From assembly GCF_055900595.2 (NCBI RefSeq), contig NZ_CM148325.1: a stretch of DNA of 64,000 nucleotides; one strand, written 5' to 3'. Shown here one piece after another: positions 11,977 through 43,848 of this stretch (positions are counted from its first letter, which is position 1; every line of letters begins with the position of its first letter). The notes below the pieces were generated by a model. That model was not told the DNA's origin. It saw only the letters and a list, made by a program, of their open reading frames with translations, and searched no databases. Both the position numbers and the translations under genes were made by a program.

Positions 11977-12094
11977 AATCTCGCGCTAACAACCTGGAAT
12001 CGAGCCGTCATACTACGGCGCAACGCCCTATAAAGTAAACGATGACCCTGCGGGAACTTCAGGGTAAAATGACTATCAAAATGTGAATTGCAGC

Positions 12095-12128
12095 TGACCT
12101 GGGACTTGTACCCGGGTCGGTATTTTTT
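12095..12128 (+). promoter_or_regulatory. Terminator-like hairpin plus T-run inside the greA leader (candidate GraL-type attenuator)
   Basis: gacctggg...cccgggtc stem followed by ttttttt, about 100 bp upstream of greA start. Confidence 0.4.
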
Positions 12129-18780: not shown

Positions 18781-18867
18781 GCCGAGGTGGTGGAATTGGT
18801 AGACACGCTACCTTGAGGTGGTAGTGCCCAATAGGGCTTACGGGTTCAAGTCCCGTCCTCGGTACCA
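18781..18867 (+). tRNA. leuU: tRNA-Leu (anticodon GAG)
   Basis: GCCGAGGTGGTGGAATTGGTAGACACGCTACCTTGAGGTGG...GGTACCA; cloverleaf with long variable arm; directly downstream of secG. Confidence 0.95.
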
Positions 18868-22470: not shown

Positions 22471-22547
<77 letters not shown>

Positions 22548-22669
22548 CTTTCCCTTAGAGTCCTTTTTCAAATATACTGTGAAGACTTCGGCCTTCGTAG
22601 TGGGATTTGAAAAAATCCTTCTGGAAAGTGCTCCAGACCGCAGTTGCGGTTATAGGGTTCAGTTATATA

Positions 22670-22694
22670 AAGCCCCGATTTATCGGGGTTTTTT
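22670..22694 (+). terminator. Terminator/attenuator-like hairpin between metY and rimP
   Basis: aaagccccgatt-tatcggggtttttt. Confidence 0.5.
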
Positions 22695-22753
22695 GTTATC
22701 TGACTACAGAATAACTGGGCTTTAGGCCCTTTTTTTATGTCTTGGGGGTGGGC

Positions 22754-27418: not shown

Positions 27419-27435
27419 GGTTTTTAGGGTTCTAT

Positions 27436-27510
27436 GCGGGATAAGGCGTTTACGCCGCATCCGGCATGGATTGCCTGATGCGACGCTGGCGCATCTTATC
27501 AGGCTACGTG
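27436..27510. repeat. REP (repetitive extragenic palindrome) elements between infB and rbfA
   Basis: gcgggataaggcgtttacgccgcatccggc... and ...gcctgatgcgacgctggcgcatcttatcaggc, typical REP sequence. Confidence 0.55.
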
Positions 27511-27982: not shown

Positions 27983-28926
27983 TGAGTCGTCCTCGTCGTC
28001 GCGGTCGCGACATTAACGGCGTTTTGTTGCTGGATAAACCACAGGGTATGTCCAGCAACGATGCGCTGCAAAAAGTGAAACGGATTTATAACGCCAACCG
28101 TGCCGGACACACTGGCGCGCTGGATCCGCTGGCGACCGGCATGCTGCCGATTTGCCTCGGGGAAGCCACCAAGTTTTCCCAGTATCTGCTGGACTCCGAC
28201 AAACGCTATCGGGTGATTGCGCGTCTTGGACAGCGTACCGATACTTCTGATGCCGACGGACAAATCGTTGAAGAACGTCCGGTAACCTTTAGTGCAGAGC
28301 AACTGGCGGCGGCACTGGATACTTTCCGTGGTGATATCGAACAGATCCCATCGATGTATTCAGCACTGAAATACCAGGGCAAAAAACTGTACGAATATGC
28401 GCGTCAGGGAATTGAAGTCCCGCGTGAAGCACGCCCGATTACCGTTTATGAATTGCTGTTTATTCGCCACGAAGGCAATGAACTGGAGCTGGAAATTCAC
28501 TGCTCAAAAGGCACCTATATCCGCACTATCATTGACGATCTCGGCGAAAAACTCGGCTGTGGCGCGCATGTTATTTACCTGCGTCGCCTGGCTGTAAGTA
28601 AATATCCGGTTGAACGGATGGTGACTCTGGAACATCTGCGTGAACTGGTTGAGCAAGCCGAGCAGCAGGATATTCCGGCAGCGAAGTTACTTGATCCATT
28701 ACTGATGCCAATGGACAGTCCAGCTTCGGACTATCCGGTGGTGAATCTTCCGTTAACGTCTTCTGTTTACTTCAAAAATGGTAACCCGGTTCGTACATCC
28801 GGTGCGCCGCTGGAAGGACTGGTTCGCGTTACAGAAGGTGAGAATGGCAAGTTTATCGGTATGGGCGAAATTGACGATGAAGGCCGCGTTGCGCCTCGTC
28901 GCCTGGTGGTTGAATACCCGGCGTAA
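27982..28926 (+). CDS. truB: tRNA pseudouridine-55 synthase
   Basis: 314 aa ORF with catalytic [12 protein letters not shown] motif. Confidence 0.95.
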
Positions 28927-28978
28927 TGTTAACCGTCTTGCGATAACAAGTCGCTACGAGTAGAATACTGCCGCTTAA

Positions 28979-29344
<366 letters not shown>

Positions 29345-29360
29345 TTCTTGCGAGTTTCAG

Positions 29361-29387
29361 AAAAGGGGCCTGAGTGGCCCCTTTTTT
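29361..29387 (+). terminator. rpsO intrinsic terminator hairpin
   Basis: aaaaggggcc-tgag-tggcccctttttt. Confidence 0.65.
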
Positions 29388-29589
29388 CAAACTGACGGCA
29401 GCAATTCACTGGAAACTAATGTATTGTTGCTATGAATGATCTTCCGTTGCAGAGGTTCGCGCGGCTAATGAGAGGCTTTACCCACATTGGGCTGGGTTAG
29501 GGTTGTCATTAGTCGCGAGGATGCGCAGAAGATCGGGTATTAACACCAGTGCCGTAAGGTGCTGTCTAAGAAAGAGAAAGGATATTACA

Positions 29590-31725
29590 TTGCTTAATCC
29601 GATCGTTCGTAAATTCCAGTACGGCCAACACACCGTGACTCTGGAAACCGGCATGATGGCTCGTCAGGCTACTGCCGCTGTTATGGTTAGCATGGATGAC
29701 ACCGCGGTATTCGTTACCGTTGTTGGTCAGAAAAAAGCCAAACCAGGTCAGGACTTCTTCCCGCTGACCGTTAACTATCAGGAGCGTACCTACGCTGCTG
29801 GTCGTATCCCGGGTAGCTTCTTCCGTCGTGAAGGCCGCCCAAGCGAAGGCGAAACGCTGATCGCGCGTCTGATTGACCGCCCGATTCGCCCGCTGTTCCC
29901 GGAAGGTTTCGTCAACGAAGTTCAGGTTATCGCCACCGTGGTTTCTGTTAACCCGCAGGTTAACCCGGATATCGTCGCGATGATTGGTGCTTCTGCTGCG
30001 CTGTCTCTGTCTGGTATTCCGTTCAATGGTCCGATTGGTGCTGCCCGCGTAGGTTACATCAATGACCAGTACGTACTGAACCCGACTCAGGACGAGCTGA
30101 AAGAGAGCAAACTGGACCTGGTTGTTGCCGGTACAGAAGCTGCCGTGCTGATGGTTGAATCTGAAGCTGAACTGCTGAGCGAAGACCAGATGCTGGGCGC
30201 AGTGGTGTTCGGTCATGAACAACAGCAGGTTGTTATTCAGAACATCAATGAACTGGTGAAAGAAGCCGGTAAACCGCGTTGGGATTGGCAGCCGGAGCCG
30301 GTAAACGAAGCGCTGAACGCGCGCGTTGCTGCGCTGGCTGAAGCTCGTCTGAGCGATGCTTATCGCATTACCGACAAACAAGAGCGTTATGCGCAGGTTG
30401 ATGTCATCAAATCTGAAACCATCGCGACGCTGCTTGCTGAAGACGAAACCCTGGACGAAAACGAACTGGGTGAAATTCTGCACGCTATCGAGAAAAATGT
30501 TGTTCGTAGCCGCGTACTGGCAGGTGAACCGCGTATCGACGGTCGTGAAAAAGATATGATCCGTGGTCTGGATGTGCGTACTGGCGTGCTGCCGCGTACT
30601 CACGGTTCTGCGTTGTTCACCCGTGGTGAAACGCAGGCACTGGTTACCGCAACGCTGGGTACTGCACGTGACGCACAGGTTCTTGATGAACTGATGGGCG
30701 AACGTACTGACACCTTCCTGTTCCACTACAACTTCCCTCCGTATTCCGTAGGTGAAACTGGCATGGTCGGTTCTCCGAAGCGTCGTGAAATTGGTCACGG
30801 TCGTCTGGCGAAGCGCGGCGTGCTGGCAGTAATGCCGGATATGGACAAATTCCCGTACACCGTACGTGTAGTGTCTGAAATTACCGAATCCAACGGTTCT
30901 TCTTCTATGGCTTCCGTGTGCGGTGCGTCTCTGGCGCTGATGGACGCAGGTGTGCCAATCAAAGCTGCTGTTGCGGGTATCGCAATGGGTCTGGTGAAAG
31001 AAGGCGACAACTACGTTGTACTGTCTGACATTTTGGGCGACGAAGATCACCTGGGCGATATGGACTTCAAAGTTGCGGGGTCCCGCGACGGTATCTCTGC
31101 ACTGCAGATGGATATCAAAATTGAAGGTATCACCAAAGAGATCATGCAGGTTGCGCTGAATCAAGCTAAAGGTGCGCGTCTGCATATCCTGGGCGTCATG
31201 GAGCAGGCGATCAACGCGCCGCGTGGTGATATCTCTGAGTTTGCACCGCGTATCCATACCATCAAGATCAATCCGGACAAGATCAAAGACGTTATCGGTA
31301 AAGGCGGTTCTGTTATCCGTGCCCTGACCGAAGAAACTGGCACTACCATCGAAATCGAAGATGACGGTACTGTGAAGATCGCAGCGACCGACGGCGAGAA
31401 GGCGAAAAACGCTATTCGTCGTATCGAAGAGATCACTGCAGAAATCGAAGTGGGTCGCGTCTACAATGGTAAAGTGACCCGTATCGTTGACTTTGGCGCG
31501 TTTGTTGCCATCGGCGGCGGTAAAGAAGGTCTGGTCCACATCTCTCAAATCGCCGACAAGCGTGTTGAGAAAGTGACCGACTACCTGCAGATGGGTCAGG
31601 AAGTACCGGTGAAAGTTCTGGAAGTCGATCGCCAGGGCCGTATCCGTCTGAGCATTAAAGAAGCGACTGAGCAGTCTCAACCTGCTGCAGCACCGGAAGC
31701 TCCGGCTGCTGAACAGGGCGAGTAA
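29590..31725 (+). CDS. pnp: Polyribonucleotide nucleotidyltransferase (PNPase)
   Basis: 711 aa from TTG at 29590 ([16 protein letters not shown]...); ORF-track start 29503 is an upstream in-frame extension into the leader. Confidence 0.9.
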
Positions 31726-43673: not shown

Positions 43674-43848
43674 GTCGGATGCGGCGTAAACGCCTTATCC
43701 GACCTACGGTTTGCATCGTTGTAGGCCTGATAAGACGCGGCAAGCGTCGCATCAGGCAACGGCAGTCGGATGCGGCGCAGGCGCCTTATCCGACCTACGG
43801 TTTGCATCGTTGCAGGCCTGATAAGACGCGGCAAGCGTCGCATCAGGC
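43674..43848. repeat. Tandem BIME: two near-identical 84-bp REP-pair units at 91-bp period
   Basis: Unit 1 43674-43757 and unit 2 43765-43848, each gtcggatgcggcg...gccttatccgacctacggtttgcatcgttg.aggcctgataagacgcggcaagcgtcgcatcaggc. Confidence 0.7.

Follow-up and report, generated by a model that had tools for sequence, protein, structure and literature searches.

The window, that is, the whole 64,000-nucleotide stretch of DNA analysed here, derives from E. coli, and its interval 29345–29589 is the rpsO–pnp intergenic region, near-identical to that of strain K-12. The genes rbfA, truB, rpsO, pnp, nlpI, and deaD follow one another in this order on the + strand throughout, and the RefSeq and K-12 annotations give the same genes. 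With a 901-nt query (28900–29800), matches were obtained in 5425 of 5426 complete E. coli genomes at 95–99.9% identity; the top matches over this stretch reached 99.9%, and none reached 100%. The products of the two flanking genes differ slightly from those of K-12: ribosomal protein S15 has Ser instead of Ala at residue 44 (A44S; codon 29204–29206), and PNPase carries three substitutions (Q194E, H607N, and T626N). Between the genes, five differences from K-12 MG1655 were found, none of them at a paired position of the long hairpin described below. The stem of the terminator T1 is one G shorter, position 29391 is A here and G in K-12, two further differences concern apical-loop bases of the long hairpin (29489 and 29491), and position 29561 is G here and A in K-12, with the pair kept (U·G vs. 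U–A). Judged from the sequence, these five differences are not expected to change the function of the region. The coordinates of all the elements are collected in Table 1.

Table 1. Elements of the rpsO–pnp region in window coordinates, with the basis on which each was delimited.
Element	Coordinates	Strand	Basis
rpsO (ribosomal protein S15, 89 aa)	29075..29344	+	ORF list, RefSeq/K-12 annotation, translation comparison
Conserved single-stranded block GAGUUUCAG, directly 5′ of the terminator	29351..29359	+	Near-invariant columns in the 46-sequence alignment A2
Bidirectional intrinsic terminator: T1 of rpsO (+), T of SraG (−)	29360..29388	both	Folds and PMC5029454
SraG antisense small RNA, primary transcript	29361..29575	−	RF00082 match; K-12 b4449 mapped via alignment A1
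Conserved block GCAGCAAU...UAAUGUAUUGUUGC, pnp P2 promoter region	29397..29431	+	Alignment A2; P2 location from PMC5029454
P2 transcription start, monocistronic pnp mRNA (putative, to ~2 nt)	29432..29434	+	Published P2–RIII distances and hairpin geometry
RNase III processing hairpin of the pnp leader (97 nt)	29438..29534	+	Fold, covariance model R1, covariation
5′ arm of the order-wide invariant core (UUCGCGCGGCUAAUGAG)	29457..29473	+	Invariant or >=90% conserved columns
3′ arm of the invariant core (UUGUCAUUAGUCGCGAGGAUG)	29504..29523	+	Invariant columns
Second small hairpin, CAGUGCC-GUAA-GGUGCUG, 7 bp	29547..29564	+	Fold; 3′ of the RNase III hairpin and 5′ of the ribosome-binding site
Shine-Dalgarno sequence AAAGGA	29577..29582	+	GG[AG] 6–11 nt upstream of TTG in 46/46 species
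SraG promoter −10 box TAATAT	29582..29587	−	Read from the sequence; hexamer assigned from spacing
pnp CDS, UUG start, 711 aa	29590..31725	+	ORF list, RefSeq/K-12 annotation, conservation

Several other regulatory RNA elements were recognized in the window. The Rfam S15 leader (RF00114) matches at 29017–29131 (+) with 117.6 bits, over the rpsO 5′ UTR and first codons; this is the known element of S15 translational autoregulation, and the operon therefore has two consecutive autoregulatory leaders. A promoter-like site at 28938–28966 (TTGCGA-17-TAGAAT), the sole match of a consensus promoter/terminator scan, fits rpsO P1. Elsewhere, Rfam naRNA4 (RF02564) was found twice at ~70 bits each, at 27435–27505 (+) and 43724–43795 (−), one of the two lying just 5′ of rbfA, and a greA leader (RF01769) and a rimP leader (RF01770) occupy 12007–12128 (+) and 22636–22736 (+), respectively. 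There are two tRNA genes, at 18781–18864 (+) and 22471–22544 (+); the latter precedes the rimP leader, as expected for metY of the metY-nusA-infB operon.

The conserved block GAGUUUCAG between the rpsO stop codon and the terminator is probably the RNase E site that initiates decay of the rpsO mRNA, a site reportedly described by Regnier and Hajnsdorf (1991). RNase E cleavage has been located upstream of T1 (PMC5029454). The terminator itself is a GGGGCC/GGCCCC stem (GGGGCC-UGAGU-GGCCCC) with an A-tract and a T-tract on its flanks, so that UUUUUU comes after the stem on the + strand and UUUUC on the − strand, the layout of a bidirectional intrinsic terminator. Its folds reached −18.7 kcal/mol (+) and −17.4 kcal/mol (−), with z about −4 on both strands. 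It was not listed by the consensus scan, presumably because its U-tract pairs with the upstream A-tract. The pnp promoter P2 sits downstream of T1 (PMC5029454), and in read-through transcripts its region (29397–29431) folds into a small hairpin (−11.3 kcal/mol, z −3.0). The same scan found neither the P2 hexamers nor the SraG promoter, and the positions of both therefore rest on the literature.

The original prediction placed about 200 nt of leader before the start codon, and 201 nt were indeed counted from the end of the T-run at 29388 to the TTG at 29590. In read-through transcripts from the rpsO promoter the leader would be roughly 200 nt long, and in transcripts from P2 roughly 157 nt, given the putative P2 start. 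The leader had also been described as rich in potential pairing, which agrees with its predicted energy: the segment 29389–29600 folds at −72.8 kcal/mol, vs. −55.8 ± 4.5 for 200 dinucleotide shuffles (z −3.76, 0/200 as good). This signal comes mainly from one stable long hairpin at 29438–29534 (−46.1 kcal/mol, z −5.54, 0/200 shuffles as good), composed of a basal stem, an internal loop, an invariant 12-bp helix, and a variable apical stem-loop. The hairpin is long and imperfect, and it lies 3′ of T1 and P2 and 5′ of the Shine-Dalgarno sequence. Its stem is identical to that of the experimentally characterised K-12 hairpin, from which only two apical-loop bases differ. The opposite (−) strand of the hairpin folds at −33.4 kcal/mol (z −4.6), and the 66 nt leading up to and just past the start codon (29535–29600) have shuffle-like structure (z −0.39).

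RNase III is known to cleave the leader hairpin at P2+39 (RIII1) and P2+77 (RIII2), 38 nt apart (PMC5029454). In the window, the pair positions of the 12-bp helix sum to 58977; with a 38-nt excised piece and an assumed 2-nt 3′ overhang, this geometry would place RIII1 between 29470 and 29471 and RIII2 between 29508 and 29509, with a precision of ~2 nt. Gordon et al. (2017; PMC5371410), in an RNA-seq study of K-12, reported an rnc-dependent site at 3311286, annotated as psrO and affecting pnp, for which the rnc−/WT read ratio was 3,782. This site maps to window position 29472, inside the hairpin and 1–2 nt from the predicted RIII1. With RIII1 at 29470/71, the P2+39 spacing would put the P2 start at about 29432. 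A 37-nt 5′ fragment, RNA37, was reportedly described by Jarrige in 2001; if this is the 5′ fragment of the processed leader, the P2 start would be 29434.

For the comparative analysis, loci were sampled by an exact-pattern scan, one genome per species, with the back-translated PNPase N-terminus FQYGQHTVT, which yielded 120 loci. Together with the window, 51 Enterobacterales loci formed a set of 52 sequences, and the 45 loci with a full intergenic region formed a set of 46. In plain MAFFT alignments (A2–A4), indels misaligned the basal and apical stems, and RNAalifold recovered the invariant core only; these alignments were replaced by a covariance-model alignment (A6) and by alignment-free folding. 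The covariance model, R1, was built on the E. coli hairpin structure. On the pnp strand, it recognized the hairpin in every one of the 52 Enterobacterales sequences (window and 51 loci), with 50–101 bits; it gave weak mirror matches of 22–40 bits on the opposite strand and had no match in the 69 loci from other orders.

The hairpin structure is accompanied by compensatory changes in the relatives. In A6, 92.7% of the cells are standard pairs, compared with 38–48% when the partners are slid by 1–3 columns; 20 of the 36 pairs have changed on both sides (155 cells), and none of 500 shuffles attained any of the five covariation measures. The fit of A6 to the R1 structure biases it toward pairing; this is offset by the slid controls and by the folds made without an alignment, which agree with it. 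When the sequences were folded individually, the same single long hairpin was obtained in 46 of 46, at −37 to −64 kcal/mol. Two near-invariant arms stand out in alignment A2, UUCGCGCGGCUAAUGAGAG and UUGUCAUUAGUCGCGAGGAUG, and both the apical part between them and the flanks are variable. The apical stem by itself is weakly better than shuffles (median z −1.75; 20/46 below −2), but such short stems give little power, and for this part of the hairpin the covariation counts are the better evidence. The RNase III hairpin that the original prediction had named for this leader is therefore present, as judged from its near-identity to the K-12 hairpin, the covariation in the 52 Enterobacterales sequences, and the RNA-seq site that maps inside it. 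In a Δrnc mutant of Yersinia pseudotuberculosis, pnp mRNA was raised about 4-fold (PMC11361751), in line with the order-wide conservation of the hairpin.

Some lineages have enlarged the region in their own ways. In Dickeya oryzae (L122:1530-1676), which also forms the single long hairpin, an insertion of ~50 nt in the apical loop pairs with itself and lengthens the stem. Insertions of ~100 nt between T1 and the P2 block were seen in Enterobacter sp. BIGb0383, Kluyvera, and Pseudocitrobacter (L024, L043, and L075), and insertions of ~60 nt between the rpsO stop codon and T1 in Erwiniaceae (L036, L119, L054, L027, L090, L026, and L042). The invariant core is intact despite every one of these lineage-specific spacer insertions. 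Outside the Enterobacterales, many rpsO–pnp spacers consist of a terminator-like hairpin followed by a structured domain of ~100 nt that is more stable on the pnp strand; loci of this type belong to Idiomarinaceae (L012, L066, and L092), Burkholderiales (L014, L016, L048, and L080), and Aeromonas. In L092, for example, the pnp strand is the more stable, with −30.6 vs. −8.2 kcal/mol. These predictions, a single global fold per locus without controls, suggest that a similar rpsO–pnp architecture may recur with unrelated sequence beyond the Enterobacterales; a sliding-window hairpin scan of the non-enterobacterial leaders had an outcome that is suggestive at most.

As originally predicted, a TTG codon opens the 711-aa PNPase, which runs from 29590 to the stop at 31725 and has the same start in the K-12 and RefSeq annotations. 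TTG stands at the homologous position in all 45 other Enterobacterales with a full intergenic region; other start codons were seen farther away, with GTG in Aeromonas and Idiomarina and mostly ATG in Burkholderiales. A 30S toe-print has been obtained at +15 from the pnp UUG (PMC5029454). According to the account of Park (2015) given in PMC5029454, the processed 5′ UTR has two CsrA sites, one of which overlaps the Shine-Dalgarno sequence. In the window, the Shine-Dalgarno GGA lies at 29580–29582, in a motif conserved in 46 of 46 species. Another GGA, at 29519–29521, lies in the 3′ arm of the core, and the surrounding GAGGAUG is present in 38 of 46 species; this GGA is a candidate for the upstream CsrA site, which would become exposed after processing. 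A hairpin occupies the position of 29547–29564 in nearly all 46 species, with differing sequences (median z −2.05; 32/46 below −1.5).

The antisense small RNA SraG had likewise been predicted for this interval without being delimited. Rfam model RF00082 matches at 29531..29360 (−) with 160.8 bits (gathering score 50) over model positions 1–177 of 177, and K-12 sraG (b4449, 3311183–3311398) maps through alignment A1 to 29575..29361. The RNA thus occupies the rpsO–pnp spacer on the strand opposite to the pnp leader and ends at the rpsO terminator, which acts in reverse to form the SraG 3′ end (PMC5029454). Both the hairpin (29438–29534, +) and SraG (29575..29361, −) now have boundaries, and one detail of the original prediction is corrected: SraG spans nearly the entire interval, not a small part of it. 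Its length is 215 nt here and 216 nt in K-12, because of the 1-nt deletion in the terminator. By cRT-PCR, the SraG start was placed 42 nt upstream of the older 5′ end, with a 216-nt primary transcript (Fontaine et al., 2016; PMC5029454). The Rfam model begins at the older 5′ end (29531), and the annotated transcript therefore reaches further upstream, to 29575. A second match of RF00082, on the + strand (20.2 bits, E 0.98), was rejected as a palindromic echo of the hairpin.

The −10 box of SraG, TAATAT, lies between the pnp Shine-Dalgarno sequence and the UUG, 7 nt upstream of the SraG start (T, 29575). A −10 mutation abolishes SraG, and the box is near the Shine-Dalgarno sequence without overlapping it (PMC5029454). 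The promoter region (29576–29640) is identical to that of K-12, and SraG is therefore expected to be made from the window sequence and produced in this strain. Residual SraG signal has been ascribed to a predicted longer antisense RNA whose start lies 339 nt upstream of the SraG promoter (PMC5029454); in the window this start would fall at about 29914 (−), inside pnp.

The position of SraG opposite the leader raises the question of which strand has been under selection. It might be argued that the hairpin is conserved mainly as a structure of SraG and that the hairpin of the pnp strand is its mirror image: the Rfam consensus structure of SraG includes the hairpin (within the 160.8-bit match), the SraG strand also beats its shuffles (−33.4 kcal/mol, z −4.6), and SraG is itself cut by RNase III in vitro, at mirror sites (PMC5029454). 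However, in each of the 46 species the pnp-strand hairpin was more stable than the SraG-strand version, with a mean difference of 16 kcal/mol. Two wobble pairs, conserved as G·U in 50 and as U·G in 47 of the 52 sequences, both become A·C mismatches on the SraG strand and so make the pnp strand the more stable one, and R1 scored 50–101 bits in the sense and 22–40 bits in the antisense direction. Moreover, the hairpin is universal, yet only 13 of 46 species have the exact E. coli −10 box of SraG, and 20 of 46 retain the key A2 and T6 positions of the box. TAATAT is retained in, e.g., Citrobacter, Photorhabdus, Yersinia, and Pectobacterium, and the box is degenerate in, e.g., Enterobacter cloacae, Erwinia, and Pantoea. 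We therefore regard conservation through SraG as very improbable. RF00082 matched in all 16 other Enterobacterales tested (70–161 bits). From the sequences compared, we conclude that the conserved object is the sense-strand leader with the shared terminator, so that an RF00082 match shows homology of the locus, not antisense expression; the matches across the order may mostly reflect this leader rather than an expressed small RNA.

Two other explanations bear on the sense strand. The leader could chiefly be a temperature sensor or a ligand-independent switch of ribosome access, with RNase III in a secondary role. Cold induces PNPase and relieves its autoregulation, according to the summary of Zangrossi (2000), Beran and Simons (2001), and Mathy (2001) in PMC5029454, and an RNase III-independent translational autoregulation exists, according to the citation of Carzaniga (2015) in the same paper. 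The predicted fold nevertheless leaves the Shine-Dalgarno sequence free, with the end of the hairpin 46 nt 5′ of it; the segment 29535–29600 is no better than shuffles (z −0.39); a hairpin of −46 kcal/mol is too stable for melting in the physiological range; and the literature credits cold induction to weaker autocontrol together with a modest rise of P2. As a replacement for RNase III-dependent control, such a switch seems to us slightly less probable even than conservation through SraG; a thermosensor role is an addition to the main explanation. The mechanical ORF list, for its part, contains a 740-aa ORF that would start PNPase at TTG 29503 and a 58-aa antisense ORF (29654..29478), and the interval would be partly coding if either were real. 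The start is, however, annotated at 29590 in both K-12 and RefSeq, and the UUG toe-print is published (PMC5029454). An in-frame stop stands directly 5′ of the TTG in several Enterobacterales, e.g., two Serratia and Tatumella, and the upstream region varies by frame-breaking indels. In 29 of 45 species only 9 codons of the antisense ORF are left, and 19 of 45 have lost its ATG. Both ORFs were rejected as lacking conservation, and a coding role of the interval has a next to negligible probability.

Based on these results, we read the interval as the E. coli rpsO–pnp control region, in which several post-transcriptional controls on PNPase synthesis are stacked, with a probability of roughly 95%. 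The elements are present at the coordinates given and fold as described, the hairpin covaries and is biased toward the pnp strand, and the region is identical to K-12 apart from the differences listed.

In the scheme that would follow for this locus, transcripts arising either by read-through of T1 (29360–29388) or from P2 (start ~29432–29434) would both form the 97-nt hairpin at 29438–29534. A staggered RNase III cut in the invariant helix, at ~29470/71 and ~29508/09, would remove the top 38 nt and leave a short duplex of the 5′ fragment with the pnp mRNA's new 5′ end. PNPase would degrade the small upstream strand, which would leave the processed mRNA open to RNase E and CsrA. CsrA would bind the GGA motifs at 29519–21 and in the Shine-Dalgarno sequence (29580–82), and attack by RNase E would inactivate the message, such that an excess of PNPase would result in lower PNPase synthesis. 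The weak UUG start and the second hairpin (29547–64) belong to the same leader. SraG would run antisense through the leader from 29575 and stop at the reversed T1, and its pairing with pnp would block the 30S subunit, make extra RNase III sites, and trim PNPase by ~30%.

What this scheme says of cleavage, of autoregulation, and of the actions of CsrA and SraG comes from the literature and would apply to the window by analogy. Published work describes the RNase III cut, the removal of the small strand by PNPase, and the RNase E-mediated decay of pnp mRNA (PMC5029454; PMC8708148). Both CsrA and SraG contribute further repression at the level of translation. [quoted passage not shown] The pairing of SraG reaches to 5 nt from the Shine-Dalgarno sequence, blocks the 30S subunit in vitro, and creates new RNase III sites, and PNPase is ~30% lower (PMC5029454).

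The degree of conservation leaves some room for a further function. In 52 of 52 Enterobacterales, the sequence of the central 12-bp helix and of its flanks does not vary, the two conserved G·U wobbles included, whereas the adjoining stems covary freely. This invariance exceeds the requirement of RNase III for double-stranded RNA and would fit a sequence-specific recognition element; its reader might be, e.g., PNPase, S1, CsrA, or RNase E through its 5′ sensor. A tentative extension of the main reading, which we consider possible although rather doubtful, is that the cleavage helix (29457–29473/29504–29523) would be a sequence-specific element that is read after cleavage and that SraG would be a lineage-restricted passenger.

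The pnp leader hairpin and SraG are already known in detail; work on this locus, a textbook example of how a ribonuclease regulates itself, goes back to the 1980s, and the antisense RNA was characterised in 2016. The practical gain of the present analysis is the exact coordinates of each element and the finding that the locus is intact in the window strain, which may be of use to specialists in the design of mutants and in judging Rfam SraG annotations in other genera. Small additions are the order-wide invariant core, the bias of the hairpin toward the sense strand, the universal UUG start, and the patchy SraG promoter. Of these, the invariance of the cleavage helix and the patchiness of the SraG promoter would go beyond the textbook, both modestly and as read from the sequences.

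Among the known systems, the junction of rpsO and pnp is a site of regulation in distant bacteria as well. An antisense RNA, RliD, lies at the same junction in Listeria (PMC5029454), and an RNase III site lies there in Streptomyces coelicolor, as PMC8708148 reports from Gatewood (2011); regulation in these species is little studied. Neither has sequence homology to the window, and R1 matched in none of the 69 loci from other orders. The closest counterpart is the K-12 rpsO–pnp region, which shares with the window the locus, the gene order, the hairpin stem, the Shine-Dalgarno sequence, the UUG, and the SraG promoter, and differs from it by the five small changes (T1 stem, 29391, 29489, 29491, and 29561). 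Compared with SraG/PsrO (RF00082, b4449), the window has the same position, the same strand relative to pnp, the same terminator, and a full-length match, although the signal of the Rfam model is largely a mirror of the sense hairpin together with the shared terminator. The leader of the E. coli rnc gene, rncO, has no sequence similarity to the pnp hairpin and no antisense RNA, but, like pnp, it carries a 5′-UTR hairpin in which an RNase III cut destabilises the mRNA of a ribonuclease (PMC8708148; PMC5371410). In rncO the cutting enzyme is itself the regulated enzyme, whereas in pnp RNase III opens the leader and PNPase feeds back by degrading the small strand of the duplex.
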